A stretch of 64,000 nucleotides of DNA from an uncultured Solirubrobacteraceae bacterium (lineage in GTDB: Bacteria; Actinomycetota; Thermoleophilia; Solirubrobacterales; Solirubrobacteraceae), in NCBI GenBank assembly GCA_964588985.1, contig CAZPQW010000019.1:4632-68631 (forward strand). Direction: 5' to 3'. The position numbers were made by a program, and so were the translations under genes. The notes beneath the pieces are model-generated. The model ran no database searches, had not been told where the DNA came from, and saw only the letters and a program-made list of their open reading frames with translations. Shown in pieces: positions 20,277 through 62,136 of the stretch. The first letter of the stretch is position 1. Every line of letters starts with the position of its first letter.

Positions 20277-20363
20277 GCTTCCCGGTGGCGCTGTTGGACG
20301 TCAACGCGACTCGAGCATCCTCGCCATGGGCGACGGAAATGACGTCGGGGTATTGACCACGCT

Positions 20364-26217: not shown

Positions 26218-26234
26218 CGACAGGGGAGGACGGA

Positions 26235-29042
26235 GTGCCGATCTACACACAGGCCCAGGCCGAGGCAATCTCCTGCCTCGACGAGCCGCTTCAGATGATC
26301 GCGTGTGCCGGCTCGGGGAAGACCCAGGTGATCTCTCAGCGGATCGCATCGATCCTCTCGCTTCCGGGCGTCGAGCCACGAAACGTCGTCGCGTTCACGT
26401 TCACCGAGAAGGCGGCGGCGGAGCTTCAGGACAGGATCTATTTCATCCTCGAGGAGGAGGGCGTAGACCGGCTCGGGCTGGCAGAGATGTATGTCGGAAC
26501 GATGCACGGGTACGCCCTCGACCTGTTGCAGCGGCTCGTCCCGGAGACCTTTAAGTTCTCGGTGCTGACGGACATCACCTCGCGGCTGCTCGTCGACAGG
26601 AACAGCAGGCAGTCCGGCTTGACCGTCTGCCCGACCAGCTCTCCCGGCACGCCTACGCTGCGGCGCTACATCCACTCGAAGCTCTTTCTGCAGGCAACGA
26701 GTGTGCTCCGCGAGGACGAGGTCGATGGAGATCTGGTGCCGGAGGGCGTGCAGTCATCGTTCCGCGACTACATGAGGTTGATTTTCGAGAAGGCCTATTT
26801 CGACTACACCGAGATCATCAACCTCGCAGTTCAGTTTCTCGAGGGAGATGAGGATGACGATGAGGACGCGGCCAGGATCCGCAGTCACATCCGTGACGAC
26901 ATTCGCTACGTTGTGGTCGACGAGTACCAGGATGTCAACCCGCTTCAAGAGCGTCTCGTCCGGGGGCTGACGCAGTTCGGTGCGAACCTTTGTGTCGTCG
27001 GAGACGACGATCAGACGATCTACCAGTGGCGTGGGAGCGAGGTCTCGAACATCGTCACGTTCGCCGACCGGTACGCTGGCGTCCGCCAGGTGACACTCGC
27101 CGAGAACTTCCGCTCGAGCGAGGGTGTGGTCGAGGTGGGGAGGTCGATCGCGGAGCAGATCCCCGCCGGTAGTCGCCTGCCGAAGGCAATGGTGCGCGCT
27201 GGCCACCAGACCTGGGACCGAGGTGACTTGATCGCTCGCGACTTCGCCGACGAGGACGAGGAGGCCGCGTGGATCTGCGATCGCATCGAGGCAATGCGCG
27301 GACTTGCCTTTCAGGACACTGCCGACAACGAGGCACGGGGCCTCTCGTGGTCGGACTTCGCCGTGCTGTTCCGGTCTGTCGCGAAGGACGCGGACCCACT
27401 AGTCGCGGAGATGCGGCGGCGCGAAATCCCGTACGTCGTTAAGGGTCTGAATCGCCTCTTCGACAGCCCGGAGATCACCGCTGTCGTCGGGGCGTTTCGC
27501 TATATGGCTGGCCTCGTCGATGCGCCGGCTCTACGGGACCTCTGGCAGGACGCGAACCTTCTCCCCGGGAACGGCGACTGGGCTGCGGCACTCGCTGTCC
27601 TAGAGGACGGTCGCGACTTCGACCGGGGAGAGCGGTGGGGCGTCTACAACATCCAGCGGCTTTACCTCGACTTTCTCGCCGCGCTCGGCGTGCGCGAGGA
27701 GACGGTTCCGGGTGAACCGGTGCGGCGAGAGCTCGTCTTCTACCAGCTCGGGAAGTTCAGCCAGGCGATCTCGGACTTCGAGGCTATCTACTTCAACAGC
27801 GAGCCTGCGCGGAAGTACGAGGCGTTCGCGAAGTGGCTCGAGTACCAAGCTCCGGATTACTACGCGGAGTCCGACGCCGACGTGGGGTATGCGACGCCGG
27901 ACGCGGTCACGCTCACAACAGTGCATCAGGCCAAGGGCATGCAATGGCCGGCGGTATTCATTCCCTGTCTGCGCAAGAACCGCTTCCCGTCGAAGCGGCA
28001 CGGCGGATTGGGCCTCTTCCACGTCATCCCGGAAGCTGCCATCGCCGATGCCGACCGCTACCGCGGCACCGTCGAGGACGAGACACGCCTCTTCTATGTT
28101 GCAGCCACTCGTGCCCAGAAGTACCTGTTCGTGTCGTTCTCGCCTGGGTCGAACCAGCTCTACAGGAAGCGGTCGGACTTCTTCGACCACTGCGCGAGCC
28201 AGCAGTGGTTCTCAACCAGGGACACGGGTGTGCCGGCGGACGCGCCGCGGCTCGAGCCTCGAGCCCACCACGAGACGCCGAACGTAACGCTGTCGTTCTC
28301 GGAGCTGAAGTACCTGTTCGAGTGCCCGTACCAGTTCAAGCTGCGCTTCCTCTACGGGTTCAACCCTCCGCTGCACGAGGCACTTGGCTACGGCAAGGGT
28401 CTACACGACGCGCTGTCGGAGCTGCACAAGCGTGCGCTCGCCGGCGACATCGTCGGGAACGACAAAGCCGAAGATCTCGTCGACCGGCATCTGCACGCTC
28501 CGTACGCGTACCCCGCGCTGCGCCAGACGCTGCGCGACGCAGCCGTGAAGTCCGTCCAGCGATATCTCGACGAGCACGGCTCGACGCTTGAGAAGACCGT
28601 GCACAGCGAGAAGGAGATCCAGGTGCACGTCGCTCCCGGTATCACCGTCGCCGGCCGGATCGACCTCGTCCGGCGACTGGACACCGACGAGCTCTCGATC
28701 GTCGACTTCAAGTCGACTGCTCGCGCACAGGACGAGGACGTGACGCGCGATCAACTGCACGTCTACGCCGTCGGTTACGAGGAGCTCACCGGCGAGCGGG
28801 CGGACCTGATCGAGGTGCTCAACCTCGACGAGGAAGGCAAGACCATCAGGGAGGAGGTCGAAGAGCCGCTCCTCGTCGGCGTGCGTTCGCAGATCCGCGA
28901 CGCGGGCGATTCGCTGCGGGAGAACAACCTTCCGCGCCTGGCCTCATGGGGCGAGCAGTGCTCCAAGTGTGACCTCGCCGAGCTGTGTCGCGATGTTCCT
29001 GCATTGGAGAAGGCGTCGCGACGTGCGGCCTCTGGTCGCTAA
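26235..29042 (+). CDS. UvrD/PcrA-type SF1 helicase fused to a Cas4/AddB-like 4Fe-4S PD-(D/E)xK nuclease
   Basis: Helicase motifs: CAGSGKT, VVDEYQD, GDDDQTIYQWRG, ENFRS, HQAKGMQW, YVAATRA. C-terminal nuclease motifs: ECPYQF, GRIDLV...IVDFKS, QLHVYA, CSKCDLAELC. The GTG start lies 17 nt after the mod stop and has a ggggagga RBS. Confidence 0.9.
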   Translation: MPIYTQAQAEAISCLDEPLQMIACAGSGKTQVISQRIASILSLPGVEPRNVVAFTFTEKAAAELQDRIYFILEEEGVDRLGLAEMYVGTMHGYALDLLQRLVPETFKFSVLTDITSRLLVDRNSRQSGLTVCPTSSPGTPTLRRYIHSKLFLQATSVLREDEVDGDLVPEGVQSSFRDYMRLIFEKAYFDYTEIINLAVQFLEGDEDDDEDAARIRSHIRDDIRYVVVDEYQDVNPLQERLVRGLTQFGANLCVVGDDDQTIYQWRGSEVSNIVTFADRYAGVRQVTLAENFRSSEGVVEVGRSIAEQIPAGSRLPKAMVRAGHQTWDRGDLIARDFADEDEEAAWICDRIEAMRGLAFQDTADNEARGLSWSDFAVLFRSVAKDADPLVAEMRRREIPYVVKGLNRLFDSPEITAVVGAFRYMAGLVDAPALRDLWQDANLLPGNGDWAAALAVLEDGRDFDRGERWGVYNIQRLYLDFLAALGVREETVPGEPVRRELVFYQLGKFSQAISDFEAIYFNSEPARKYEAFAKWLEYQAPDYYAESDADVGYATPDAVTLTTVHQAKGMQWPAVFIPCLRKNRFPSKRHGGLGLFHVIPEAAIADADRYRGTVEDETRLFYVAATRAQKYLFVSFSPGSNQLYRKRSDFFDHCASQQWFSTRDTGVPADAPRLEPRAHHETPNVTLSFSELKYLFECPYQFKLRFLYGFNPPLHEALGYGKGLHDALSELHKRALAGDIVGNDKAEDLVDRHLHAPYAYPALRQTLRDAAVKSVQRYLDEHGSTLEKTVHSEKEIQVHVAPGITVAGRIDLVRRLDTDELSIVDFKSTARAQDEDVTRDQLHVYAVGYEELTGERADLIEVLNLDEEGKTIREEVEEPLLVGVRSQIRDAGDSLRENNLPRLASWGEQCSKCDLAELCRDVPALEKASRRAASGR

Positions 29043-30206: not shown

Positions 30207-30956
30207 TCACCCCCCGGCAATAACCCCAAAGTCCTGCGTATAGATCCCGCCGCTCATCCCGCCCCCCAACGCCCGCGGCGGATGCGACGAAACCCCGATC
30301 CCCGTGTCCCTGAAGTGCCCATCGAGAATGTTCGCGCGGTGCAACGGCGAGGCCATCCACGCGGCGACGATCGACCGCGGCGTGCCCAGCCACAGCGTGC
30401 CCCATGCGATGTTCTCGCCGACCTGGAAGCTGTGTGAGCCGGAGATGTAGCCGGCTTCGCGCATCCGCTGCAGCGGCGTCTGGCCGCCCGGGCCGGTGTG
30501 TTCGAAGTAGTCGTTGACGACCATGCTCGTCGTGTGCCCCTGCGCCGCCTGCTGTAGCTGCGGGTTTGCGACGAGCGGCGTCTCGCCGTGCGCCGCACGT
30601 TCGCGGTTTACCAGGCAGAGCGTCGCTGCACGGATCAGTTCGAGGTTCTGCGTCGTGGGCGCAAGCCCGGCGTTCGCGCAGCCATCGGTGCCGCTGTCCG
30701 CTGACTTGGAGAGCGCGGTGACGGTGCTCGTGGAGCGGTTGACGGCTTTGGAGTGGTGCTTCACGCAGCTGACGTGAACGCGTCGCTTCGAGTGCTTTCG
30801 CGCCTTTACCGAGTGTGCATACCTGCCGCAGCGCGTCGCCCGATGGGCGCGCTTGTGCGTGCTCGAGGTTGCGCCGAGCGCGAGCGATCCGCCGTCGAGG
30901 GCGGCGAGGCTGAGGACGGCGATCACGGCAAGGCAGAGGAGGCGTAGTCGAGCCAC
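30207..30956 (-). CDS. Secreted CAP/SCP (YkwD-like) domain protein
   Basis: Signal peptide MARLRLLCLAVIAVLSLAAL, plus CAP motifs NRERAAHG...HTTSMVVNDYFEH...GENIAWG...WMASPLHRANIL. Confidence 0.85.
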   Translation of the reverse strand: MARLRLLCLAVIAVLSLAALDGGSLALGATSSTHKRAHRATRCGRYAHSVKARKHSKRRVHVSCVKHHSKAVNRSTSTVTALSKSADSGTDGCANAGLAPTTQNLELIRAATLCLVNRERAAHGETPLVANPQLQQAAQGHTTSMVVNDYFEHTGPGGQTPLQRMREAGYISGSHSFQVGENIAWGTLWLGTPRSIVAAWMASPLHRANILDGHFRDTGIGVSSHPPRALGGGMSGGIYTQDFGVIAGG

Positions 30957-47675: not shown

Positions 47676-48836
47676 GTGGCGCGCTCCGAGGAGGACCTGA
47701 AGAACCCGTTCCGCTTCGGTGCGCTCGCGTTGGACGCGGCGTTCACCGACCGCGAGCGCGAGATCGAGGAGCTGAGCGCGGACATCCGCAACGGGCAGGA
47801 CGTGGTCCTGTTCGCGCCGCGCCGCTACGGCAAGTCCTCACTGATCTGGCGCGTGGCGCAGCAGCTCGTGACCGAGGACGTGCTGGTGGCGCAGGTCGAC
47901 CTGATGCGCACCCCCACGCGGGAGAAGCTCGCGGAGCGGCTCGCCAAGTCGATCCACGAGGAGATCGCCTCGCGCCTGTTTCGCACGCGCGAGCGGGTGC
48001 GCGTGTTCGCGGGCCTGCGGATCAAACCGACCGTGACCGTCGACCCGGACGACGGCTCGCTGTCGTTCAGCTTCGAAGCGCGCGCCGACCGGCAGGACAT
48101 CGACGCGACGCTCGAAGGGCTCCTCGCCCTGCCGGGGCGTCTGGCCGCGGAGCGCAGACGGTCGGTGGCGCTGGTGTTCGACGAGTTCCAGGAGGTCGTG
48201 GACATCGACCCCGGGCTGCCGAAGCTGATGCGCTCGGTCTTCCAGGAGCAGCCGGAGGTCGCCCACGTGTACCTCGGCAGCCGCCGGCACATGATGGAGC
48301 GGATCTTCAACGACGAGAACGAGCCGTTCTGGCGCAGCGCGAAGCAGGTCGAGCTCGGCCCGATCCCCGTGGATCTGTTCGCTCGCTATGCGATCGCGCG
48401 GTTCGCCGACACCGCGAAGGAGCTGGAGCAGAACACCTGCGAGCGCGTGCTCGAGCTGACGGGAGGCCATCCTTACGGCACGCAGGAGGCGCTGTACTTC
48501 CTGTGGGAGGAGACCCCCGCGGGAGGAATCGCCGAAGCGGAGCGCCTGGAGCAGGCGATCGACGCGCTGCTGCGCTCCGAGCACTCGCACTTCAGCCTGC
48601 TGTGGTCGCGGGCCGCCGCGGCGCAGCGCCGCGTGCTGCAGGCACTCTCCGCCGAGCAGCCCGGACGCCCCCTCAGCAGCGACTACCGCCTGCGCCACGC
48701 GCTGCCGTCGACCGCGACGGTGCAGACAGCCCTGAACGCGCTCGGCGCGGCGGAAGTGATCGAGCGGGTCGAGCGCGGCGAGTACCGCATCGCCGAGCCG
48801 TTCCTCGCGGAATGGATCGCGCGCAACGAGAGCTAG
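47676..48836 (+). CDS. AAA ATPase of the archaeal-ATPase (PF01637-like) type
   Basis: FTDREREIEEL...VLFAPRRYGKSSL (Walker A) and VFDEFQEV (Walker B). Confidence 0.8.
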   Translation: MARSEEDLKNPFRFGALALDAAFTDREREIEELSADIRNGQDVVLFAPRRYGKSSLIWRVAQQLVTEDVLVAQVDLMRTPTREKLAERLAKSIHEEIASRLFRTRERVRVFAGLRIKPTVTVDPDDGSLSFSFEARADRQDIDATLEGLLALPGRLAAERRRSVALVFDEFQEVVDIDPGLPKLMRSVFQEQPEVAHVYLGSRRHMMERIFNDENEPFWRSAKQVELGPIPVDLFARYAIARFADTAKELEQNTCERVLELTGGHPYGTQEALYFLWEETPAGGIAEAERLEQAIDALLRSEHSHFSLLWSRAAAAQRRVLQALSAEQPGRPLSSDYRLRHALPSTATVQTALNALGAAEVIERVERGEYRIAEPFLAEWIARNES

Positions 48837-49270: not shown

Positions 49271-50044
49271 ATGACACGCATCAAGATCATGGGGCTCAGC
49301 CTCGTCGCGGTGTTCGCGATGGCCGCGATGGCCGCATCGAGCGCGTCGGCCACGCCGACGTTCTACGAATGTGCGAAGGCAGCCAAGGTAGGCAAATTCT
49401 ACACTGGCAAATACAACGACAAAAACTGCACCGAAGTCAACGGCAAATCCGAAGGTAAATACGAACTCAAAGAAGGCGTTGGCAAAGGCAAGGTCTTCAA
49501 GGGCAAGGGCGCAGCCGCCGTTCTGCACACGCCCGCCGTCGGTGGAGAAGTGACCTGCAAAGGCAGCAAGGACGAAGGTAAGAACACTCTGACGGGCCAG
49601 AAGGAAGTCAAAGTGACCTTCACCGGCTGCGCCAGCCTCGGTAAAACCTGCAACTCCGTAGGCGCGAAATCAGGCGAAATCAAAACCAACCCGCTGGCCG
49701 GCACGCTCGGCTACATCTCCGCGACTGGCCCCAAAGTGGGCGTCAGCCTCACGGGTGAAGCTGGCAAACCGTCCGCTGAATTCGCATGTGGAACGGGCGC
49801 AGGCTCGCTGAACATCGTCACCACCGGCGCCGTCATCGGCGAAATCACGGGTGACATCAACAAAATCTCGAAGGAAGCAACCGACGCGTTCACTGTCACG
49901 GGCGAAGGTTTCCAGACGGTGACCAGCTTCGAAGGTGGACCGCTGGAAGTCCTCGAGACGAGCATCAACGGTTCGCCTAACTTCGAATCAGGCGAGCAGA
50001 CGACGACCCTGAACAAGGGCGAAGCACTCGAGATCAAAGCGTAG
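49271..50044 (+). CDS. Secreted six-Cys protein, paralogue 1 (unknown family)
   Basis: Signal peptide ending SASA-TP and an aaggag RBS. About 55-60% identity to 50182..50970 by hand alignment. Strong GAA/AAA codon bias. Confidence 0.75.
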   Translation: MTRIKIMGLSLVAVFAMAAMAASSASATPTFYECAKAAKVGKFYTGKYNDKNCTEVNGKSEGKYELKEGVGKGKVFKGKGAAAVLHTPAVGGEVTCKGSKDEGKNTLTGQKEVKVTFTGCASLGKTCNSVGAKSGEIKTNPLAGTLGYISATGPKVGVSLTGEAGKPSAEFACGTGAGSLNIVTTGAVIGEITGDINKISKEATDAFTVTGEGFQTVTSFEGGPLEVLETSINGSPNFESGEQTTTLNKGEALEIKA

Positions 50045-50181: not shown

Positions 50182-50970
50182 GTGTGGGCAACTCAAGGGG
50201 AGGGCATACAGATGCGACGGATGAGGATCGTCGGGCTCAGCACGCTCGCAGCACTGGCAGTGGCCGCGATAGTGGCCGCGGGTGCATCGGCCGCGCCGAC
50301 GTACTACGAATGCGCGAAAACGGCCAAAGGGGTTGGCAAATACCTGGTCGGCTGCACCGAAGAAGCCGCGGAAGGGGCGGGCACGTACGAAATCCAGGAA
50401 GGGATCGGCAAAGGCAAAGCGTTCAAAGGCAAAGGCGGAGCGCTGATCTTCCACATCCCGGCGAACGGCGGCGAATTCACGTGCAAAGCAAGCACCGAAG
50501 AAGGTCACTACACGGTCACCGGCCAGGAAAAAGTCAAAATCACGATCACCGGCTGCGAGATCCTCGGCAAAACCTGCCAGACGGCTGGTGCCAAATTGGG
50601 CGAAGTCAAAACGAACTCGCTCTCGGGATCCCTTGGCTATATCTCCGCCGTTGGGCCCAAAATAGGTATCGCCCTAGCCGGTGAAGAAGGTACCCCGTGG
50701 GCCGTATTCGAATGCGGGAGCGGTGCCGGGACACTGCACTTCGTCGTCACGAGTGCTGTCATCGGCGAACTCACCGGCGACGTCAACCACTTCGGCAAAG
50801 AAGTCACGAAGGCGTACACCGTGACCGGTGGAGGCTTTCAGACGGTCGCACGGTTCGAAGGTGGCCCGCTGCAGGTTCTCGAATACTCCATCAACGAATC
50901 GATCGTGACCGAAATGGGTATCGCGACCACGACGGCCGCGAAAGGCGAAAACCTGGAGATCAAAGCCTAG
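50182..50970 (+). CDS. Secreted six-Cys protein, paralogue 2 (unknown family)
   Basis: Signal peptide ending ASA-AP and a ggggaggg RBS. Collinear with paralogue 1, including all six Cys and the C-terminal LEIKA. Confidence 0.75.
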   Translation: MWATQGEGIQMRRMRIVGLSTLAALAVAAIVAAGASAAPTYYECAKTAKGVGKYLVGCTEEAAEGAGTYEIQEGIGKGKAFKGKGGALIFHIPANGGEFTCKASTEEGHYTVTGQEKVKITITGCEILGKTCQTAGAKLGEVKTNSLSGSLGYISAVGPKIGIALAGEEGTPWAVFECGSGAGTLHFVVTSAVIGELTGDVNHFGKEVTKAYTVTGGGFQTVARFEGGPLQVLEYSINESIVTEMGIATTTAAKGENLEIKA

Positions 50971-51169: not shown

Positions 51170-54100
51170 ATGAGCGACGCTGGCGGCGCTGGCGCTCAAC
51201 TGCAGATGTCACGCCGCGCAAGAAGCGCCGTGCTCGGGATGCTGGGTGCGTGTGCGATCGGATCGTTGCTCATGAGTGCGCCTGCGCTCGCCCTCATCCA
51301 GCGCGGGCATGTCTTCAGTCCGTCCGCGTCGTTCGGCAGCAGCGGCTCCGGTGAAGGCCAGCTGTCGAGCCCGTCGGCCGTCGCCGTCAGCGAAGTGGGG
51401 GTCGCGGCGGGCGATGTGTACGTCGCCGATCGCGGCAACAACAGAGTCGAGCAGTTCGACTCATCGGGCAAATTCGTAGCTGCATGGGGCTGGGGCGTGA
51501 AGGACGGCGAAAAAGAAACCGAGGTCTGCACGAGCGGAGAAGGCTGCAAACCCGGTCTCGCGGGCGCGGGCAAAGGAAGCGAAGGCTTCCATCTCGGCAA
51601 AGGCCAGATCGTCTCGCCGATCGCGATCGCCGTGGACAACTCGAAATCCGCCTCGGCCGGCGACGTTTACGTGGTGGCTAGCGTCGTGCCGGAAAAGTCC
51701 TATGTGGACAAGTTCGGACCGAATGGCGAATACATCCGTCAGCTCACGAAGAAAGAAGAAACCGAATTCAACGGTCGCGTGGAGGGCGTGGCGGTCGATG
51801 GCAACGGTGTGGTGTGGGTCGATTGGAGCGAACAGGAGATCACCAACTTCACCGGTGCGGAACCGAACAAACGCGTGAACAAAGAAGTGGAACTCGAATC
51901 GGGTGTCGGCAACCTCCGGCCGGGTCTGGCGGCGGACTCCAGCGGGCATCTGTACGTGAACTCCGAACCGGCTGAACTCTTCGAACAGGGCACGGAAGGC
52001 ACCAGTGCCGAAGAAGGCACGGGCGAAGGCGGCGAAGAACCGTGCGAAGCGTCCCCCTGCTACGCCTCGAAGCTCGCCATGACGGGCGAAGAACCGGGCG
52101 CCGTGCTGACCTTGCACATGAACCACCAGAACACAAGCGGCATCGCTGCTGACCTTGGCACGAACGACGTCTACGTCGACAACCTCACGAGCGTGACCTC
52201 GTACAGCTCGACGGGACGGACGATCGAGCGCTTTGGCACAGGCGACCTGACGCACGCCGCCGGTCTCGCCGTTCACGCAGGCGACGGCGACGTCTACGTC
52301 GCGGACTCCGCGACGGGCAAAATCGATGTCTTCGTTCCCGAACCCGCCGCTGCCCCGAACGTCGACGAAATATCGGTCGGGAAGATCACGACCACAACGG
52401 CCGAACTCGGTGCCGAGGTCGACGCCAAAGGGGCCGAAACGACCGTCACCTTCCAATACGGCACCTCGAGCTGCTCGGGAGGGTCGTGCGTGTCCGTCCC
52501 AGCGTCCGAACCGACGATCCCGACGAGCTTCGGCGACCGCAGCAGGAGCATTCCGCTGGAAGGTCTCATCGCTGGCACCACCTACCACTACCGGGTCATC
52601 GCCAAAAACTCCTTCGGCACCTTGACGAGCGAAGAACGCACGTTCACGACGCAGTCCGCGACGTCGTTTGCGCTGCTCGACGGGCGGGGCTGGGAGCAGG
52701 TCTCGCCGTCCGCCAAGAACGGCGCAGGATTCGAATCGATCGCCAAGGAAGGCGGCGTGATCCAGGCATCCGTGGAAGGCAGCGGCATCACGTTCGTTGG
52801 CACGGGGCCGGACGAAGTCGAAACGGAAGGCAACCGCAGCCCGGAATTCACACAGATCCTCGCCAATCGCGTGACCAACGGCGAAGGCAAGGCTGAATGG
52901 ATCTCCAAGGACATCAACACGCCGAGCGACACCGCCACCGGGATTGAAGCTGGCAAGGCGCCGGAGTACCAGGCCTTCTCGCCCGACCTCTCAGCCGCGA
53001 TCGTCAGGCCCAAGTCGCCCGAACCGCTGCTTTCCGAAGAAGCCTCGGAAGTCACGCCGTATCTGCGCGAAAACGCGCACTGCGGGCCCGTGCCCTCGGC
53101 CTGCTACAAGCCGCTGGTAACAGGCAAGGAAGGCTATGCAAACGTGCCTTCGGGCACGAAATTCGGCGGCACCGTGAGCCGCGGACTCCAGCTTCTGTCG
53201 ACGGAACCCGACCTGCGTCACGTTGTCCTGCAGTCGGAAGTCCCGCTCACCGAAGAACCGGCCGCGGCCGGTCCAAACCTGTACGAGTGGAGCGAAGGCC
53301 ATCTCCAGCTGGTCAACGCGCTGCCGGGCGCCGGCGGCCCTGCGGTGGCGGCGAAGCTCGGTACGGATAACAACGGCGTCAGGCACGCGCTCGCCGACGG
53401 CGGTGCAAGGGTCTTCTGGACCGCCTCGACGGACGTCCCGCTCGAAGGAAGTCAGCGCCTCTACGTCCGCGACATGGTCAAGGAAGAAACCCTGCGGCTC
53501 GACATGCCCCAGGAAGGCGTCAAAGAACAGACCTCCGAAGGAGCTGGCTTTGCCGCCGCCAACGCGGAAGGCTCGCGGGTGTTCTTCACCGACGTCGAAC
53601 CGCTGACCCCTGGCGCGCGGGCCTCGCGCGAAGCGGGAGGCCCAGACCTGTACGCGTGCGACATCGGCGAACAGGCGGGCAAACTGACGTGCTCGCTGCA
53701 CGACCTGACCGAAGACACCGAAGCCGGTGGCGAAACGGCTGACGTCCAGGGCACCGTGCTCGGGGAGAGCGAAGACGGCTCGACGGTTTACTTCGTCGCA
53801 AACGGGGTGCTCGACAAAACCGCCAACGCGCAGAGCGAAAAAGCCACACCCGGCGAATGCGAACTCGACAACCGAGGCTCGCAGGCGACCTGCAACCTCT
53901 ACGTCGAGCACTACAACGCGGGCGAAGGCGCATGGGAAGCGCCGAGGTTCGTCGCGACGCTCTCAAACGAAGACGAACCGGACTGGTACAGCTTTGGCCA
54001 CGGCGGAGGTCTGACGGAAATGACCTCCCGCGTCTCGCCGAACGGCCGCTACCTGTCGTTCATGTCCGAGCGGAGCCTGACGGGGTACGACAACCGCGAC

Positions 54101-54955
54101 GTCAACAGCGGCGCTCTCGACGAGGAGGTCTTCCTCTACGACACGAGCAGCGGCAAGCTCGTGTGCGCCTCGTGCGACCCGACGCAGGGCCGACCGACGG
54201 GTGTCTTCGACACTGGGGAAGTCAGCGAAGAAGGCTTGGGGCTGCTCGTGGATCGCCCGGAAACCTGGGGCGGACGGTGGCTTGCCGGCAGCGTCCCCGG
54301 GTGGACCCCGGTGAGCGAGAACCGCTCCACGTATCAGTCGCGCTACCTGTCCGACAGCGGCAGGCTGTTCTTCAACAGCGCCGACCAGCTCGTCCCAGCA
54401 GACACGAACTCCAAGGAGGACGTCTACGAGTACGAGCCCGCGGGTCTCGGCTCGTGCGCCAGCGAAACGGGCTGTGTCGGGCTCCTCTCCTCCGGCAGGT
54501 CGGAAAAGGAATCTGCGTTCCTGGACGCGAGCGTCACGGGCAACGACGTGTTCTTCCTCACCGCTGGCGCGCTCGTCGCGGGCGACGCCGACACGAACTT
54601 CGATGTATACGACGCGCGAGTCTGCGGGCCGGGTGGCTGTGTGTCTTCGAGCAGCGAATCGAGCGCGACGTGCCAGGAAGTCGAAACCTGCCGTCCGGCG
54701 GCCCCCACCGAGCCGGTGTTCTCGAGTCCGGCGACCACGGCCCCTTCCGGCTCCAGCAACCTCACGCCTTCCCCGCCCGTGAAAACCCCGGTCAAAGTGG
54801 TCGTCAAACCGACCCGCACGCAACTGCTCGCGAAGGCGCTGAAGGCCTGCAAGAAGAACAAGAGCAAGCACAGGCGAGCGGTTTGCGAAAGGGCCGCGCG
54901 TAAGAAGTACGCCGCCAAGAAGGCGAGCAAGAGCACGCGCAGGAGAGGTCGATGA
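51170..54955 (+). CDS. Large secreted NHL-repeat / FN3-like / beta-propeller protein with a Lys-rich two-Cys tail
   Basis: Signal peptide (SAVLGMLGACAIGSLLMSAPALA). About six NHL-type blades (GDVYVADRGNNRVEQFDSSGKF and others). An FN3-like segment (TTYHYRVIAKNSFG). TolB-like blades (SPNGRYLSFMS, DVYEYEP). Start 51170 (gagggag RBS) or 51206. Confidence 0.8.
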   Translation: MSDAGGAGAQLQMSRRARSAVLGMLGACAIGSLLMSAPALALIQRGHVFSPSASFGSSGSGEGQLSSPSAVAVSEVGVAAGDVYVADRGNNRVEQFDSSGKFVAAWGWGVKDGEKETEVCTSGEGCKPGLAGAGKGSEGFHLGKGQIVSPIAIAVDNSKSASAGDVYVVASVVPEKSYVDKFGPNGEYIRQLTKKEETEFNGRVEGVAVDGNGVVWVDWSEQEITNFTGAEPNKRVNKEVELESGVGNLRPGLAADSSGHLYVNSEPAELFEQGTEGTSAEEGTGEGGEEPCEASPCYASKLAMTGEEPGAVLTLHMNHQNTSGIAADLGTNDVYVDNLTSVTSYSSTGRTIERFGTGDLTHAAGLAVHAGDGDVYVADSATGKIDVFVPEPAAAPNVDEISVGKITTTTAELGAEVDAKGAETTVTFQYGTSSCSGGSCVSVPASEPTIPTSFGDRSRSIPLEGLIAGTTYHYRVIAKNSFGTLTSEERTFTTQSATSFALLDGRGWEQVSPSAKNGAGFESIAKEGGVIQASVEGSGITFVGTGPDEVETEGNRSPEFTQILANRVTNGEGKAEWISKDINTPSDTATGIEAGKAPEYQAFSPDLSAAIVRPKSPEPLLSEEASEVTPYLRENAHCGPVPSACYKPLVTGKEGYANVPSGTKFGGTVSRGLQLLSTEPDLRHVVLQSEVPLTEEPAAAGPNLYEWSEGHLQLVNALPGAGGPAVAAKLGTDNNGVRHALADGGARVFWTASTDVPLEGSQRLYVRDMVKEETLRLDMPQEGVKEQTSEGAGFAAANAEGSRVFFTDVEPLTPGARASREAGGPDLYACDIGEQAGKLTCSLHDLTEDTEAGGETADVQGTVLGESEDGSTVYFVANGVLDKTANAQSEKATPGECELDNRGSQATCNLYVEHYNAGEGAWEAPRFVATLSNEDEPDWYSFGHGGGLTEMTSRVSPNGRYLSFMSERSLTGYDNRDVNSGALDEEVFLYDTSSGKLVCASCDPTQGRPTGVFDTGEVSEEGLGLLVDRPETWGGRWLAGSVPGWTPVSENRSTYQSRYLSDSGRLFFNSADQLVPADTNSKEDVYEYEPAGLGSCASETGCVGLLSSGRSEKESAFLDASVTGNDVFFLTAGALVAGDADTNFDVYDARVCGPGGCVSSSSESSATCQEVETCRPAAPTEPVFSSPATTAPSGSSNLTPSPPVKTPVKVVVKPTRTQLLAKALKACKKNKSKHRRAVCERAARKKYAAKKASKSTRRRGR

Positions 54956-57900
54956 CGAGCGCTCGCTCTCGCGGTCGACGGCTCCTCGGTCTCCTCGTGG
55001 CCCTGTGTTCGAGCGTGACGCTCGTGGCGGCGTTCGGCGCCGCGCCGGCACTCGCGGCGGGATCGTGGTGGAGCCTGACCTCCAGTGCGGCGCCGACGAA
55101 CCTGTCGCCGACAGAAGAAGGCCAGATACTCGTGATGGCCACCAACCGCGGTTATGCGGACGCGAAAGCCAGCGCCGGACACCCGCTCAAGGTGATAGAC
55201 CACCTGCCGGTCGGGCTCGAAGTCGGTGCCGAAGGCGCGCGGGCCGTGTTCCTCAGCCTTCCGATCAGCTGTCCGGTGGCGACCGGACAGACCGTTGTGT
55301 GCGAACTGCCACAGGCGGTCCCCGCGGGGGAAGACCTGGAAATCAAAATCGGAGTGAAGGCAACGGTTCCCAGCGGTACGACCTTGAGCAACGAACTCGT
55401 GATCGAAGGCGGCGAAGGCCAAGCGGTCACGCCGCCTGTGAAAGCTCCGGTGCGCGTGGACAGCGCCGCGACCCAGTTCGGTGTCGAAAAGTACGAACTG
55501 AAGCCGGAAGGCGAAGACGGTTCCGTCGACGCGCAGGCCGGCTCTCACCCGTTCCAGCTCACGACCACGTTCAACCTCAACAAGACGATCGAATTCAACA
55601 CCAACTACAAACACCTCGAAGCGACCGCTCCGATCCTCCCTCGCGATCTGCGCTTCGTGCTGCCGCCAGGCCTGCTCGGCAACATCACGGTCGTGCCTCA
55701 GTGCTCGGGCGTCGACTTCGCCACGATCGGCCAGGAGGACATCAACCTGTGTCCCTCCGACACCGCCATCGGCACCGCGCGAGTGACGATCAACGAACCT
55801 ACGGTGTTCGGAGGTGCGCTCACCGAAGCGGTCCCGGTCTTCAACCTGGCGCCCGAAAAAGGCGAACCCGCCCGCTTCGGTCTCGAGATCGACAAAGTGC
55901 CCGTCGTCTTCAACACCGCTGTGCGAACCGGCAGCGACTACGCCGTCGAAGTCAGCGTCGACAACGCGTCGCAGGCCGCGGCGCTGCTCAGCACCGAGGT
56001 GACGTTCTGGGGTGTGCCCGGGGACCCTCGTCACGACCAGTCACGTGGATGGGAGTGCATCGGTCACGGGCACTTCGTCGCCAAAGCCGAACCGGCGACG
56101 CCATGCGAACCGCTGGAAGAAACCAGCCCGCCGGCCTTCCTCACGCTGCCGACGTCCTGCTCGAGCACGCCGGTCACCACGGTCACCGGCGACTCGTGGC
56201 CCACCGGCCCGAGCCGCACCGTGAGCCAGCTTGCCGCCAGCTACGAATTCCCATCGGCGCTTCAGAACTGCGACCTGCTCGGCTTCTCACCCGCGATCAG
56301 CGTGGAACCGGAAACCCATGCGGCGAACGAACCGAGCGGACTGGCTGTCGACGTGACGGTGCCGCAGGCGTCGACGATCTCCGCCACCGAACTGGCCGAG
56401 GCCGACGCCAAGGAAGCCACCGTGGCGCTGCCCGCGGGCGTGCTCGCGAGTCCCGGCGCCGCCAACGGGCTGCAGGCGTGCTTCACCACGAGCATCGGTC
56501 TCGAAGCCGGGTTCTCCGAACCGAGCCAGCTCGAAAACGACCACTTCAACGCGGGCGCGGCGTCATGCCCCGACGGCTCGAAGATCGGCACCGCGGTGAT
56601 CGAAACGCCGCTGCTCAAAAACCCGCTCGCTGGTTTCGTCTATCTCGCCAACCAGGACACGAACCTGGTGGAAGAAAAGCTGGTGCTGTATCTGGTCGCC
56701 GAAGACCCGGTCTCGGGCGTGCGCGTGAAGCTCGCGGGCGACGTGCACGTGGATCCGACGACCGGCCAGCTCGTCTCGACGTTCAAGAACACCCCGCCCG
56801 AGCCGTTCTCCGAGCTGAAGCTGAGCTTCTTCGGTGGAGGCCGCGCGTCGCAGTCAACGCCCGCGCAGTGCGGTACCTACACGACCCACGCGACGTTCGT
56901 CCCCTGGTCGGGGACCTCGCCGGCGCCCGTGTCCTCGAGCTTCGAAATCACCTCCGGACCGAAGGGCACGGCCTGCGCCAACCCGCAGCCGTTCGCTCCG
57001 TCCTTCCAGGCCGGCTCGGTCGACAACCGGGCGGGCGCGTTCACGAACTTCTCGCTGACGATCGGCCACGCCGACACCGACCAGTGGCTGCAGGCGCTGA
57101 CCGTCCACCTGCCGTCGGGCGTCGCCGCGCTGCTCTCCACGGTCACGCCGTGCCCCGAACCCGCCGCGGGTCAGGAATGGGCGTGCGGGCCGGAAAGCCT
57201 GATCGGGCACTCGACCGCGAGCTCGGGCCTCGGCGAAGACCCGTTCACGCTCGGGGGCAGCGTGTATCTCACCGTGGGCTACGACAAAGCGCCGTTCGGC
57301 CTGCTGGTGGTCACGCCCGCGGACGCCGGCCCGTTCCACCTCGGCAACGTGGACGTGCGCTCGCGCATCGAAGTCGACCCGACCACGGCGGCGGTGACGA
57401 TCGTCAGCGATCCGTTCCCGACATACGTGAAGGGCGTGCCGGTGCAGCTCAAACAGATCAACGTGACCGTCGATCGCCCCGGCTTCGAGTTCAACCCCAC
57501 CAACTGCAACCAGATGGCGATCACCGGATCTCTCAGCAGTACTGGGGGGCTCAGCGAGTCGGTCTCCTCGCCCTTCCAGGTCGCAAACTGCGCGACGCTC
57601 CCGTTCAGCCCGAAGCTGACCGCGAGCACACAGGCGCAGGCGAGCAAAGCGAACGGAGCGGCGCTCAACGTCAAGGTCGAATCGACGGGGCTCGGACAGG
57701 CGAACATCGCGAAGGTCGACCTGCAGCTGCCGGTCGCGCTGCCGTCGCGCCTGTCGACGATCCAGAAAGCGTGCCTCGAAGTGGTCTTCAAGGCCAACCC
57801 GGCCGCGTGTGACGAAGGCTCGAACATCGGCTACGCCACGATCCACACGCCGGTACTCAAGGACCCGCTCACCGGGCCCGCGTATCTCGTCGCCAAGGGC

Positions 57901-58353
57901 GGCGCGGCGTTCCCCGACGTGGAGTTCGTGCTCCAGGGCGAAGGGATCCTGCTGATCCTCGACGGCAAGACGGACATCAAAAAAGGCATCACCTACTCGC
58001 GCTTCGAAGCCACCCCCGACGCGCCCTTCACGACCTTCGAAACGGTCCTGCCGACCGGGCCGCACTCCGCGCTCACAGCTTACGTCCCCGCCAGCCGCAA
58101 CTTCAACGTGTGCGGCACGAAGCTGGAAATGCCCACCGAAATCGTCGGCCAGAACGGCGCGGTGATCAGGCAGACCACGAACATCGTCGCCAACGGCTGC
58201 GCCGCCTCTCACCCGCTTACCCGCGCCCAGCTGCTCGCGAAGGCGCTCAAGACGTGCAGGAAGGCCAAGAAGAAGAGCAAGCGCGTCAGCTGCGAAAAGC
58301 AGGCCCGCAAGAAGTACGGGCCGAAGGCCAAGAAGGCGAAGAAGAAGCATTAA
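54952..58353 (+). CDS. Large secreted beta-sandwich-rich protein (adhesin-like) with the same Lys-rich two-Cys tail
   Basis: ATGA overlap with the upstream stop. Signal peptide LLGLLVALCSSVTLVAAFGAAPALA. The N-terminal TNLSP..GQILVMATNRGYA resembles DUF11/CARDB-type repeats. No LPXTG motif. Confidence 0.8.
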   Translation: MTSARSRGRRLLGLLVALCSSVTLVAAFGAAPALAAGSWWSLTSSAAPTNLSPTEEGQILVMATNRGYADAKASAGHPLKVIDHLPVGLEVGAEGARAVFLSLPISCPVATGQTVVCELPQAVPAGEDLEIKIGVKATVPSGTTLSNELVIEGGEGQAVTPPVKAPVRVDSAATQFGVEKYELKPEGEDGSVDAQAGSHPFQLTTTFNLNKTIEFNTNYKHLEATAPILPRDLRFVLPPGLLGNITVVPQCSGVDFATIGQEDINLCPSDTAIGTARVTINEPTVFGGALTEAVPVFNLAPEKGEPARFGLEIDKVPVVFNTAVRTGSDYAVEVSVDNASQAAALLSTEVTFWGVPGDPRHDQSRGWECIGHGHFVAKAEPATPCEPLEETSPPAFLTLPTSCSSTPVTTVTGDSWPTGPSRTVSQLAASYEFPSALQNCDLLGFSPAISVEPETHAANEPSGLAVDVTVPQASTISATELAEADAKEATVALPAGVLASPGAANGLQACFTTSIGLEAGFSEPSQLENDHFNAGAASCPDGSKIGTAVIETPLLKNPLAGFVYLANQDTNLVEEKLVLYLVAEDPVSGVRVKLAGDVHVDPTTGQLVSTFKNTPPEPFSELKLSFFGGGRASQSTPAQCGTYTTHATFVPWSGTSPAPVSSSFEITSGPKGTACANPQPFAPSFQAGSVDNRAGAFTNFSLTIGHADTDQWLQALTVHLPSGVAALLSTVTPCPEPAAGQEWACGPESLIGHSTASSGLGEDPFTLGGSVYLTVGYDKAPFGLLVVTPADAGPFHLGNVDVRSRIEVDPTTAAVTIVSDPFPTYVKGVPVQLKQINVTVDRPGFEFNPTNCNQMAITGSLSSTGGLSESVSSPFQVANCATLPFSPKLTASTQAQASKANGAALNVKVESTGLGQANIAKVDLQLPVALPSRLSTIQKACLEVVFKANPAACDEGSNIGYATIHTPVLKDPLTGPAYLVAKGGAAFPDVEFVLQGEGILLILDGKTDIKKGITYSRFEATPDAPFTTFETVLPTGPHSALTAYVPASRNFNVCGTKLEMPTEIVGQNGAVIRQTTNIVANGCAASHPLTRAQLLAKALKTCRKAKKKSKRVSCEKQARKKYGPKAKKAKKKH

Positions 58354-59038: not shown

Positions 59039-59737
59039 TCAGGCCGACAGCTCGGTCGCGAGCGCCACCGGCTCGCCGTCGAGCGCGTTCAGCGCGCGCT
59101 CCAGCGACATCGCCAGGCACGTGAAGCTGGGGGTGTCGCGGACGGTGTAGCGCGACGCCTCGGTGGTGCGCAGCTGCTGCACGAGGTCGAGGAACGTGCC
59201 CACGTCGTCGGTGTCGAACGCGACCACGAACTCCTGATCGTCGAGGCCGAACGAGTACGTGGTGTGGTTGTCCACGCCGGGGTATTCGCGGCCTACCTGG
59301 ATGTGGCCCTGCATGATCCTCCATCGCTCCTCCGCGGGCAGCGCGTACCACTCGCGCGACTTCACGAACGGGTACACGAACACGTACTTGCCGCGGAACC
59401 CGCGCACCACGTTGCGCTCGTCGTCGGAGTACTCCGAGCTCTTGCGCATGCCGAGGAACGAGTGGGGGATGCTCGCCCACTGCATCAACCCGCTCTGCAG
59501 CAGCACCACGTGGAACTCGTGGATACGGTCGAGGTTCTCAGCCTCGGAGACGAGCAGCAGCTCGGCGTCCCCGCGCGTGCCCACGAGCGAGAAGCTCTGC
59601 AGCATGTGGCCGTCGGCGAAGTCCTCGCACGCAGCCGCGAACTCGCGCTTGTCCTGCGCACGTCGCTCACCGTCGAGGCGCCGCCACGCCGGGTCGAGCT
59701 GCAGGAACGTGTACTTCACGAAGCGGCGTGTGGCCAT
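59039..59737 (-). CDS. hemQ: Chlorite-dismutase-family coproheme decarboxylase (HemQ/ChdC-like)
   Basis: YTFLQLDPAWRRL..., YVFVYPFVKSREWY, VAFDTDD pattern. Confidence 0.8.
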   Translation of the reverse strand: MATRRFVKYTFLQLDPAWRRLDGERRAQDKREFAAACEDFADGHMLQSFSLVGTRGDAELLLVSEAENLDRIHEFHVVLLQSGLMQWASIPHSFLGMRKSSEYSDDERNVVRGFRGKYVFVYPFVKSREWYALPAEERWRIMQGHIQVGREYPGVDNHTTYSFGLDDQEFVVAFDTDDVGTFLDLVQQLRTTEASRYTVRDTPSFTCLAMSLERALNALDGEPVALATELSA

Positions 59738-59778
59738 ATACCGATTATCGCACCGCCGCGGCAGATAAAGTACCCGCT

Positions 59779-62136
59779 GTGCGGATCGCGCTGCTGTCGC
59801 CGTACTCGTGGACCTACCCAGGTGGGGTGACGCGCCACATCGAGGCCCTGTCCAGCGAGCTGGCCGCCGCCGGCCACGAGCCGCGGATCATCGCCCCGTT
59901 CGATCCCGACGACGCGCTCTCGCGCCGGCTGCACAGGGGAGCGGTCCCGCAGCGGCGCACCGTGGGGGAGGAGTTCGTCTCGCTCGGCCGCACCGTCGGG
60001 CTGCCGGCCAACGGCGCGGTGTCCAACATGGCGCTCACCCCGCACGCGGTGTTCGCGCTGCGTCGCGAGCTTCGCCAAGGGCGCTACGACGTGGTGCACA
60101 TCCACGAGCCGGTCGTGCCGGTCGTGGGCTGGGACGCGCTCTTCAGCGCCGGGGAGCTGCCGCTGGTGGGCACCTTCCACACCTACTCCGAGAACCTGCT
60201 CACCAACGGCATCGCCGCGATCCCGCTCGGCGGGCGGCGCCGGATGAACCGCCTGCACGTGCGCATCGCGGTGTCCGAGGCGGCCGCGTGGACCGCGCGG
60301 CGCTTCTACGGCGGGCGCTACCGCGTCGTCCCCAACGGCGTCCACCTCCAGGACGCGGCTCACGCGGCGCCCTCCGATTCCACGGCTCCGCTGCGCATCC
60401 TGTTCATCGGCCAGGCGGTCGAGCGCAAGGGCCTGCCGGTGCTGCTGCGCGCGTTCGAGGCGCTGCGCGACCAGATCCCGGCCACGCTCACACTCGCCGG
60501 CGCCGCCCCCGAGGAGGTCGCGCACATGATGCTCGACGACCGCGGCGTGGAGGCGCTCGGCAAGGTCTCCGAGCAGCGCAAGCAGGCCGAGCTGGCCCGC
60601 GCGGACGTGGTGTGCGCGCCGTCGCTGGGAGGAGAGAGCTTCGGCATGGTGCTGACTGAGGCGTTCGCCGCGGCTACGCCGGTCATCGCTTCGGACATCC
60701 CCGGCTACCGCGACGTGGTGCGCGACGAGCTCGACGGCCTGCTCGTGCCGGCGGGCGACGCGCTCGCGCTGGCCGAGTCCCTGCGCCGCCTCGCATTGGA
60801 CGAGCCGCTGCGCGCGCGGATGGCCGCCTCCGCGCGCGAGCGCGCGGAGCGCTTCGCGTGGCCGAGCGTCGCCGCGGAGGTGATCGACTGCTACGAGCGC
60901 GCGCGGGCGGTGGGGTCGCCGGTGAGCACCCTGGGTCGCGTGGCGGTTCGCCACGGCCTCGCGCCGGCGGACCTGCTGCCGAGAATCCCCGCCGAACGCC
61001 TCCCGAGCCTGCAGACCCAGCCGCCCGCGAGCGAGGAGACGGCGAGCGGGCGTACGCCGCGCGTGCTGCGACGGGGAGGGCTGCTCGTCTCGTGCATCCT
61101 CGGTCTCGTGCTCGCGCAGGTGGCGCTCGCGCACATCGGCGTCGATCGCGTGGTCGGCAGCCTGCTGGCCTCCAAGCCCGGCCTCGTGGCCGCCGGCCTG
61201 GGGTTGATGTGCGCGTCGATGTTCGCCCGCGCGTTTGCGTGGCACGCGATCCTCGCGTGCGCACCGACGTGGCGTCGCGCCAAACGCAGGGACGCGATGC
61301 AGGGCACGTTCATCGGCGTGCTGATGTCCGCGACGCTTCCCGCGCGCCTCGGCGAGCCATCGCGCGCGCTGATCGTCGCCCGCCGCCTCGGGCGCGCCCG
61401 CGAGACGCTGCCGGTGGTGCTCGGCACGATGGTCTCCCAGACGCTGCTGAACCTGCTCGCGCTGACGCTGCTCGGGATCGGCATGTTCTCCAGCGTCGAC
61501 CTGCTGAACGGCCATCACGGCGCGCTGATCGCGGCGGCCTTCACGCCGCTCGGGGTCGTGGCGGCGGTGCTGCTCGCGCCCGTGCTGATTCCACGCGCCG
61601 CCGGATCCCGCTCGGCGCGCCTGCAGGCGCTGACGGCCGGCCTGCGTCGTTCGCTCTCGCGCGTGCGCGACGGCCTGCGCGTCTTCAGGCATCCGCGCCA
61701 GGCGGCGCTCGCCACCGCGGCGCAGTTGGGGGCGTGGGCCCTGCAGTGGTTGAGCTGCTGGCTGTTGCTGATGGCGTTGGGGCTCGACGATCGTGTCGGG
61801 CTCGGCGGCGCGGCGGCGGTCCTGTTCGCGGTCAACGTCACCGCGGTGCTGCCCGCCACGCCCGCCAACGTGGGCGTCTTCCAGGCCGCGTGCGTCGCGG
61901 TCCTGGCGGGCGCCTACCACGTCTCCACCCCCGACGCGCTCGCCTACGGGATCGTCCTGCAGGTGGTCGAGGTACTGACCGCGCTGATGATGGGCCTGCC
62001 GGCGCTCGTCAACGAGGGTCTCTCGTGGCGCGACGTGCGGTTGCGCACGATGCACGCCGCGCCGGTGACGCTCGGCCCGCTGCCCGTAGGAGTCTCCTTG
62101 GGTGGGCGGGCTGTCGCTTCCGCCGCGGAACGCTAG
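59779..62136 (+). CDS. GT4 glycosyltransferase fused to a lysyl-PG-synthase-TM/UPF0104 flippase-like membrane domain
   Basis: N-terminal IALLSPYSWTYPGGV.RH and the EX7E region ESFGMVLTEAFAA. The C-terminal roughly 330 aa is polytopic. GTG 59779 is chosen to avoid overlap with hemQ. Confidence 0.8.
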   Translation: MRIALLSPYSWTYPGGVTRHIEALSSELAAAGHEPRIIAPFDPDDALSRRLHRGAVPQRRTVGEEFVSLGRTVGLPANGAVSNMALTPHAVFALRRELRQGRYDVVHIHEPVVPVVGWDALFSAGELPLVGTFHTYSENLLTNGIAAIPLGGRRRMNRLHVRIAVSEAAAWTARRFYGGRYRVVPNGVHLQDAAHAAPSDSTAPLRILFIGQAVERKGLPVLLRAFEALRDQIPATLTLAGAAPEEVAHMMLDDRGVEALGKVSEQRKQAELARADVVCAPSLGGESFGMVLTEAFAAATPVIASDIPGYRDVVRDELDGLLVPAGDALALAESLRRLALDEPLRARMAASARERAERFAWPSVAAEVIDCYERARAVGSPVSTLGRVAVRHGLAPADLLPRIPAERLPSLQTQPPASEETASGRTPRVLRRGGLLVSCILGLVLAQVALAHIGVDRVVGSLLASKPGLVAAGLGLMCASMFARAFAWHAILACAPTWRRAKRRDAMQGTFIGVLMSATLPARLGEPSRALIVARRLGRARETLPVVLGTMVSQTLLNLLALTLLGIGMFSSVDLLNGHHGALIAAAFTPLGVVAAVLLAPVLIPRAAGSRSARLQALTAGLRRSLSRVRDGLRVFRHPRQAALATAAQLGAWALQWLSCWLLLMALGLDDRVGLGGAAAVLFAVNVTAVLPATPANVGVFQAACVAVLAGAYHVSTPDALAYGIVLQVVEVLTALMMGLPALVNEGLSWRDVRLRTMHAAPVTLGPLPVGVSLGGRAVASAAER

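Follow-up and report, generated by a model that had tools for sequence, protein, structure and literature searches.

A Lys-rich helical hairpin with two Cys residues at the C terminus of secreted Solirubrobacterales proteins: a new domain family and candidate envelope-retention module

Two adjacent genes, the open reading frames ORF1 (51206-54955) and ORF2 (54952-58353), lie on the forward strand of a 64-kb stretch of DNA from an uncultured Solirubrobacteraceae bacterium (contig CAZPQW010000019.1; this whole stretch is referred to here as the window), and their products end in the same Lys-rich tail with two Cys residues. This tail is an independent extracytoplasmic domain of ~35 residues, previously undescribed and specific to the order Solirubrobacterales (Actinomycetota). 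We put at slightly under one in two the probability that it serves as a non-covalent, polyanion-binding domain that retains exported proteins at the cell envelope.

The initial annotation of this DNA had held that both proteins close with a common tail on bodies that are otherwise unrelated, and the comparison of the two proteins upheld this in every detail. The tail translations quoted for 54812-54952 and 58216-58350 are exact, and both tails run to the stop codons (54953-54955 in ORF1, 58351-58353 in ORF2). When the whole of ORF1 was compared with the whole of ORF2 by BLASTP, the similarity was limited to the tail (19/30 identical residues, E = 2e-8); because only the tail was found and all other segments gave E >= 0.8, the bodies are unrelated. 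The two tails share the pattern LTRAQ(K/L)LAKALKxC-x11-CE(K/R)xARKKY, with the C-x11-C spacing as originally described, followed by a Lys-rich extension. In ORF1 the hairpin module TRTQLLAKALKACKKNKSKHRRAVCERAARKKY occupies 54812-54910 (Cys codons at 54848 and 54884) and is continued by the basic and probably disordered extension AAKKASKSTRRRGR (54911-54952). In ORF2 the module LTRAQLLAKALKTCRKAKKKSKRVSCEKQARKKY occupies 58216-58317 (Cys codons at 58255 and 58291) and the extension, GPKAKKAKKKH, occupies 58318-58350. The DNA stretch said to be common to both tails is also present: it is the 17-mer CTGCTCGCGAAGGCGCT, at 54824-54840 and 58231-58247, which encodes the conserved LLAKAL in high-GC codons, and the remaining tail DNA is diverged. 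The window DNA is itself high in GC (0.60-0.74). A DNA-level element was considered and rejected, as the LLAKAL codons account for the 17-mer. Neither the motif nor a Lys-rich end occurs in any other ORF of the 64-kb window.

To describe the module at the level of single residues, we used 414 distinct modules, collected by a search pattern that fixes Ala and Leu at positions –4 and –3 from the first Cys. Their consensus reads L-T-R-A-Q-K-L-A-K-A-L-K-A-C, loop, K-R-x-x-C-E-K-Q-A-R-K-K-Y-G. Eleven residues separate the two Cys in 71% of the modules, 10 in 9%, 13 in 17% and 15 in 3%, and 55% of the loop residues are Lys or Arg. Relative to the first Cys, Leu at –7 is present in 98%; A–4 and L–3 are invariant in the independently aligned set A2, a 50-sequence profile that was used for an exhaustive search of 1.84 billion protein cluster representatives. 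Relative to the second Cys, the conserved positions are Arg at –3 (98%), Glu at +1 (95%), Ala at +4 (99%) and Tyr at +8 (93%). The extension beyond this Tyr has a median length of 15 residues, of which 41% are Lys or Arg and the rest Ala, Gly and Ser.

The tail had been called helix-loop-helix-like from its sequence, and this agrees with the AlphaFold predictions. For an isolated query of 41 residues, helices were predicted at 4-16 and 21-35 with a predicted local distance difference test score (pLDDT) of 90. In the model of full-length ORF2 the two helices of the hairpin span residues 1091-1103 and 1108-1122 (pLDDT 82-86), and the hairpin is placed between a low-confidence linker and a disordered end, i.e., the Lys-rich extension that forms the last, low-pLDDT blocks of the model. 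In ORF2 the apolar stripe of helix 1 (L1095, L1099 and C1102) matches that of helix 2 (C1114, A1118 and Y1122) in antiparallel register, which would set the two Cys side by side, and a disulfide therefore probably staples the hairpin in this predicted register. Within the ORF2 family, pairwise identity is 62% for the hairpin, 57% for the body, 26% for the linker and 41% for the extension. Since conservation of the hairpin matches or exceeds that of the body, while the linker and the extension drift, the module is a folded domain under selection and not merely a charged end.

The structures that come nearest to the isolated hairpin in Foldseek searches are other helical hairpins, all non-significant (E > 1), and the top matches are α-hairpinins (7lxk, 7uv4, 5lm0, 2nb2 and 6o3q). 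These are plant defence or vicilin leader peptides with a CX3C...CX3C arrangement of four Cys and two disulfides (PMC7191063). They are likewise disulfide-stapled helix-loop-helix hairpins and often cationic; the fold is shared with the module only by AlphaFold prediction. Unlike the α-hairpinins, which are free eukaryotic peptides with antimicrobial or inhibitor function, the 414 modules have one C-x10-15-C pair in place of four Cys. The module differs also from the CHCH domain (twin Cx9C) in that it has one Cys per helix, no Cx9C and no Pfam match.

The motif is by no means confined to the two proteins of the window, a confinement that, by the initial annotation's own criterion, would have refuted its proposal. 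A two-sequence profile matched 51 metagenome fragments, and with the A2 profile 3670 representatives matched at E <= 1e-3, of which 255 passed the stricter limit of E <= 1e-10 (best E, 8e-27); the weakest of the 3670 may include low-complexity noise, the 255 strong ones do not. A scan of GTDB with one genome per species gave at least 469 confirmed sites. The best 79 loci comprise 78 in metagenome-assembled genomes (MAGs) of Solirubrobacterales/Solirubrobacteraceae and one on a 2-kb contig binned as Polyangiaceae. Several loci occur per genome, and five of those listed come from one MAG. Searches of the tails against Pfam, NCBIfam and PDB sequences returned no family, and literature searches returned no description of the module. 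We therefore class the module as a family new in sequence and structure but of a functional kind already known, that of non-covalent cationic surface-binding modules, where its presumed function would place it. An origin in mobile elements was not supported, as tblastn of plasmid and phage collections gave no match. In several database proteins (P0002, P0190, P0199, P0200, P0068, P0075 and P0097) the Lys-rich tail region is frameshifted or read through, giving Arg/Ala/Ser-rich ends or a fusion to the signal peptide of the next gene; errors of assembly or gene calling in AAG-rich repeats are the probable cause.

The proteins that carry the module are exported. Both ORFs have been described as secreted and without LPXTG, and we found Sec-type signal peptides at both N-termini and no LPXTG or hydrophobic segment at either C-terminus. 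A hydrophobic N-terminal signal segment was present in 44/62 full-length representative matches and in 102/117 ORF2-like proteins. The 18 exceptions among the representative matches look like N-terminal fragments, and in most of the 15 among the ORF2-like proteins the N-terminus is hydrophobic and of the ...ALA type, or the start was mis-called. The check that had been proposed, i.e., whether matches are enriched for signal peptides, therefore came out in favour of export: carriers with intact N-termini have signal peptides, and carriers are enriched relative to neighbouring ORFs. By a permissive heuristic the enrichment was 74% for carriers against 41% for neighbouring ORFs (p = 4e-4), a weak form of support in that every alternative start was tested, hence the 41% background, and inspection of the called N-termini is more informative. 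Mature ORF1 and mature ORF2 contain 22 Cys each, all of them in near-neighbour pairs with the tail pair among them, a sequence pattern typical of disulfide-bonded exported proteins.

The carriers are 500-1500 amino acids (aa) long, and in 396/414 distinct modules the placement is terminal, 25-60 aa from the protein end. Their bodies are diverse (NHL repeats, FN3 arrays, PD40 propellers, InlB B-repeats [InlB-B] and Ig-like domains) and look like adhesin stalks. The module also occurs as a tandem pair (P0052, P0054, P0062 and others). In an internal placement, two tandem modules stand between two unknown domains in a secreted family of ~485 aa (P0078, P0096). Members of this family (also P0308; L084, 5001-6461) are encoded amid the arginine-biosynthesis genes argC, argJ, argB and argG. 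In one case, P0134 (L083, 868-2010), the module is N-terminal; it directly follows the signal peptide and precedes an unannotated domain of ~300 aa. As read from the sequences, such tandem, internal and N-terminal placements are the behaviour of a binding domain rather than of a signal.

A striking separation of charge accompanies this architecture. The bodies of ORF1 and ORF2 have isoelectric points (pI) of 4.4 and 4.7 and net charges of –84 and –44, respectively, and the last 50 residues have a pI of 11-12 and net charges of +20 and +19. Among the 120 closest ORF2 homologues, tail charge ranges from +13 to +30 and body charge from –18 to –72. Signal peptides, the pI of tail and body and the tail charge of homologues together describe exported proteins in which an acidic body bears a strongly basic end. 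The hairpin is present in 110 of these 120 homologues. More distant ORF2-like genes without it have bare runs of Lys, Arg or His right after the last ...VTGC strand, e.g., CPKAKKKKK and CVKTKPKHKNNKKRKGKKKK (genes downstream of the match at loci L010, L029, L034, L039, L047, L048, L067, L069 and L074). Since homologues that lack the hairpin end in poly-Lys/Arg/His, C-terminal positive charge is the common denominator, and the hairpin, judged from these sequences, appears as its structured and conserved form. Some family members end differently, in a β-rich C-terminal domain of ~85 aa (...LTAGTHRIQVKLTRTGRSLRAHHKKTRVQVRLTV...TASVKL; P0207, P0215; L031 6167-10855, L053 1270-4050, L066 2-2998, L071 1034-4009 and L072 6168-9881), which may be an alternative C-terminal module.

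Other ways of holding a protein at a Gram-positive surface were not recognized in the two proteins. An LPXTG/sortase signal likewise sits at the extreme C-terminus of surface proteins with Ig-like adhesin stalks and has a basic end, and the LPXTG adhesins PrgB and Bap resemble the ORF2 body; the tail differs in being a predicted soluble, folded domain with neither the motif nor a hydrophobic helix. By regular expression, an LPXTG-like pentapeptide was absent from ORF2 and was found in ORF1 only as the internal LAGAG, LAMTG and LPGAG at residues 119, 291 and 707. No membrane-spanning segment was evident in the last 120 aa, where the maximum Kyte-Doolittle mean over 19 aa is 0.37 (ORF1) and 0.71 (ORF2). 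The tails matched none of the NCBIfam models for the sorting domains of exosortase, rhombosortase or archaeosortase (PEP-CTERM, GlyGly-CTERM, MYXO-CTERM and others) at E <= 10. Nor did Pfam scans of ORF1, ORF2 and the two tails (E <= 1) and of 50 tails (E <= 10) match the wall-binding domains LysM, SLH, GW/SH3, CWB1, CWB2, WxL, PG_binding or SLAP.

For the favoured reading, retention by polyanion binding, the mechanism would be as follows. Two short helices would fold back on each other, with Leu, Ala/Leu and Cys of helix 1 packed on Cys, Ala and Tyr of helix 2. The surface of the hairpin and its loop would then be almost wholly Lys and Arg and, with the disordered Lys-rich extension of ~15 residues that follows, would give the tail a net charge of about +20. 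Mostly at the C-terminus of diverse acidic, adhesin-like, Sec-exported proteins, the tail would hold these at the cell envelope, where candidate ligands are a wall polymer of the teichoic or teichuronic type, a lipoglycan or the head groups of anionic phospholipids. In this way it could stand in for the LPXTG/sortase signal or the other wall-binding domains of other Gram-positive bacteria.

Electrostatic retention of this kind would have precedents, by analogy, in the wall-binding regions of Lactobacillus S-layer proteins and in mycobacterial Lys-/Arg-rich C-termini. The high-pI wall-binding regions of SlpA, CbsA and SlpB bind to teichoic acids by an interaction proposed to be electrostatic (PMC3666127). 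Like the tail, these regions are non-covalent and strongly basic and form one end of a secreted surface protein whose remainder is acidic or neutral. They differ from the module in being longer than 100 aa, in having no Cys pair and no helical hairpin and in belonging to a different phylum, and they have no sequence relationship to the tail, in which Pfam finds nothing. In Mycobacterium, the Lys-rich C-terminal region of HBHA binds heparan sulfate (PMC12814364), and the Arg-rich C-terminus of PE_PGRS3 binds anionic phospholipids (PMC8007152). Both are C-terminal polycations of Actinomycetota and resemble the Lys-rich extension and the variants that end in poly-Lys only; unlike the module they are low-complexity repeats with no conserved, folded, Cys-stapled hairpin, and there is no homology. 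HBHA is not known to have a Sec signal peptide. In a review of surface display in monoderm bacteria, the terms 'lysine-rich', 'cationic' and 'electrostatic' are absent (PMC5817068).

Several points count against retention by polyanion binding. The strong conservation of residues on the hairpin surface suggests a defined ligand, i.e., a specific partner, protein or machinery, rather than bulk polyanion, so that the module may have a specific receptor or a role in assembly. In ORF2 the hairpin follows the last domain with next to no linker, a placement that does not easily fit a reach from the membrane through a thick wall. The signal-peptide calls come from a home-made hydrophobicity heuristic and not from a trained predictor, the disulfide in the hairpin is deduced from a predicted model, and P0134, with its N-terminal module, is represented by one sequence only, from a short, transposase-rich contig, and may be a product of rearrangement. 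With these points in mind, a more specific version of the reading can be put forward tentatively, at clearly lower probability: the hairpin may be the address label of a lineage-specific surface-display system, marking most of the Solirubrobacterales surface proteome for one defined envelope receptor. As part of that version, the receptor might be one particular repeat of a wall polymer, or else a dedicated attachment machinery, perhaps one able to cross-link the Lys-rich tail.

Four other explanations were weighed against these. That the tails resemble each other by chance, as low-complexity Lys-rich ends, or through recent local duplication or gene conversion could draw on the adjacency of the genes and their 17-nt stretch of identical DNA; this is refuted. 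Chance is excluded because profile E-values reach 8e-27 among 1.84 billion proteins, and both versions are contradicted by thousands of independent occurrences with the same fixed residues, by the divergence of the tail DNA outside the LLAKAL codons and by orthologous gene pairs in dozens of other genomes in which both members carry the module. The initial annotation had offered, side by side with an envelope-binding module, a sorting or processing tag; the former now fits better and the latter has become less likely. Such a tag would be cleaved, or attached covalently (e.g., via lysines), in the manner of LPXTG/sortase or PEP-CTERM/exosortase, and the module is indeed nearly always C-terminal, lineage-specific, present on many secreted proteins per genome and strongly conserved in its motif. 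However, there is no hydrophobic segment (maximum 19-aa hydropathy 0.4-0.7) and no match to NCBIfam sorting-signal models; no sortase, peptidase or exosortase-like conserved neighbour and no LPXTG substrate was found among the 405 ORFs of the 79 loci; and copies exist that are doubled, internal or N-terminal. Because of these features and the prediction that the module folds as a domain, a cleaved sorting tag is disfavoured, and we regard a tag of either sort as unlikely.

The remaining two explanations accept a binding domain and place its ligand elsewhere. The tail could be an element of protein-protein assembly that docks on the acidic bodies of partners from the same gene cassette, or on a receptor, to build a hetero-oligomeric surface structure or layer. 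Tail genes are very often translationally coupled in pairs or triplets and accompanied by a gene for a conserved small secreted protein, the bodies carry strong negative charge (–44 and –84), residues on the hairpin surface are conserved well beyond charge, and tails from one locus resemble each other slightly more than tails of different loci do (67.6% vs 63.9% identity, permutation p = 0.003). Yet this excess is small, the same module is found on many unrelated bodies and also in single-gene contexts, and its replacement by unstructured poly-Lys in homologues fits a generic polyanion better than a protein interface; we consider assembly an unlikely function. Alternatively, the tail would be the business end of an adhesin and not an anchor, binding external polyanions such as extracellular DNA, humics, clay or mineral surfaces or the acidic polysaccharides of plants, fungi or biofilms. 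The evidence from charge and fold is the same as for an anchor, the carriers belong to organisms from soil or peat metagenomes, and the C-termini of HBHA (PMC12814364) and PE_PGRS3 (PMC8007152) are known Lys-/Arg-rich ends that bind host polyanions. Against this, the very different bodies already look like binding or adhesin domains (NHL, PD40 propellers, Ig arrays), a protein without another anchor would be lost from the cell, and the C-terminal position after linkers mirrors that of wall anchors. Sequence data alone do not separate the binding of external polyanions from self-anchoring, and on the points just given we think the external role doubtful.

Next to nothing is known of envelope biology in the Solirubrobacterales, an abundant order of soil Actinomycetota of which very few members have been cultured. 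The module offers a marker for predicting which proteins are kept at their surface, points to an anionic envelope component expected in the lineage and gives curators a new domain family that Pfam, NCBIfam and PDB lack. If the binding function is true, a disulfide-stapled cationic hairpin of 35 residues would be among the smallest structured modules that anchor proteins to wall or membrane, and a possible display tag. If the hairpin is an address label, it would provide a surfaceome predictor for a dominant, barely cultured soil order together with a portable anchoring tag of 35 residues. Nothing in these findings contradicts current understanding.

Turning to the two carriers in the window, ORF1 encodes a secreted protein of ~1250 aa with NHL repeats, an FN3-like domain, a PD40/TolB-like propeller region and the cationic tail. 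The Met before its signal peptide is at 51206, and a gene caller prefers a start at 51170. Its Sec-type signal peptide, as read from the sequence, is MSRRARSAVLGMLGACAIGSLLMSAPALA (51206-51292), followed by LIQRGH; a junction of the form ...ALA|L(S/I)QRGH is also found in homologues. A Pro/Ser/Thr-rich linker of 40 residues (54692-54811) stands ahead of the module. A weak NCBIfam match of ORF1 to ScyF is confined to the NHL region. ORF2 encodes a secreted protein of 1133 aa, an array of Ig-like β-sandwich domains with the cationic tail. Its signal peptide, MTSARSRGRRLLGLLVALCSSVTLVAAFGAAPALA (54952-55056), is followed by AGSWW, and residues 1-34 have pLDDT < 50 in the AlphaFold model. A Pfam scan of ORF2 returned no domain. 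The model, built with 109 homologues, shows consecutive β-sandwich domains (pLDDT 88.8, predicted template modelling score [pTM] 0.74), and the PDB folds that come closest are Ig-like domains from PrgB, an enterococcal adhesin, MG domains from TEP/complement proteins, integrin legs and Bap. By this model the ORF2 body has the architecture of an adhesin stalk. An identical copy of ORF2 occurs on soil metagenome contigs, e.g., JGI 3300028800.

The gene order around the two carriers is conserved. Dozens of loci repeat the order of an ORF1-like and then an ORF2-like gene, both with tails, and a third tail-bearing gene is often found upstream of the pair. The stop codon of ORF1 and the start codon of ORF2 overlap as ATGA (54952-54955); the same overlap recurs in many orthologous loci (L002, L016, L018, L019, L023, L028, L052 and L055), and it suggests, at the level of sequence, that the two tail-bearing proteins are translationally coupled. 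Upstream of ORF1 on the forward strand, two tandem paralogues (49271-50044 and 50212-50970, 60% identical) encode small secreted proteins that contain Cys and have no cationic tail; neither belongs to a Pfam family. Their homologues occur in 29/79 loci, mostly directly upstream of the ORF1-like gene. Since these paralogues recur beside ORF1-like genes, the unit looks like a conserved cassette of three to four genes for secreted proteins.

Other genes that recur in the neighbourhood encode a TetR-like regulator, an S-adenosylmethionine (SAM) methyltransferase, an HhH-GPD protein, a chlorite-dismutase-like protein and a fusion of a GT4 glycosyltransferase with LPG_synthase_TM; they look like synteny or housekeeping rather than partners. 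The last of these, a GT4 fusion with a flippase-like LPG_synthase_TM part, lies just downstream in the window (59728-62136), is syntenic in 16 loci and is preceded by the HhH-GPD and chlorite-dismutase-like genes on the opposite strand; a link of this fusion to an envelope glycolipid or polymer is conceivable. Upstream of the cassette, 47676-48836 encodes an archaeal-type ATPase_2/AAA protein. Farther from it in the window are a gene of the CAP/SCP family (cysteine-rich secretory protein) on the reverse strand at 30207-30956, and an island of lower GC (0.60-0.65) at 19149-29042 with genes for a Fic protein, a ResIII-type helicase, an N6/N4 DNA methylase and a UvrD + PD-(D/E)XK helicase-nuclease, which looks like a restriction-modification or defence island.

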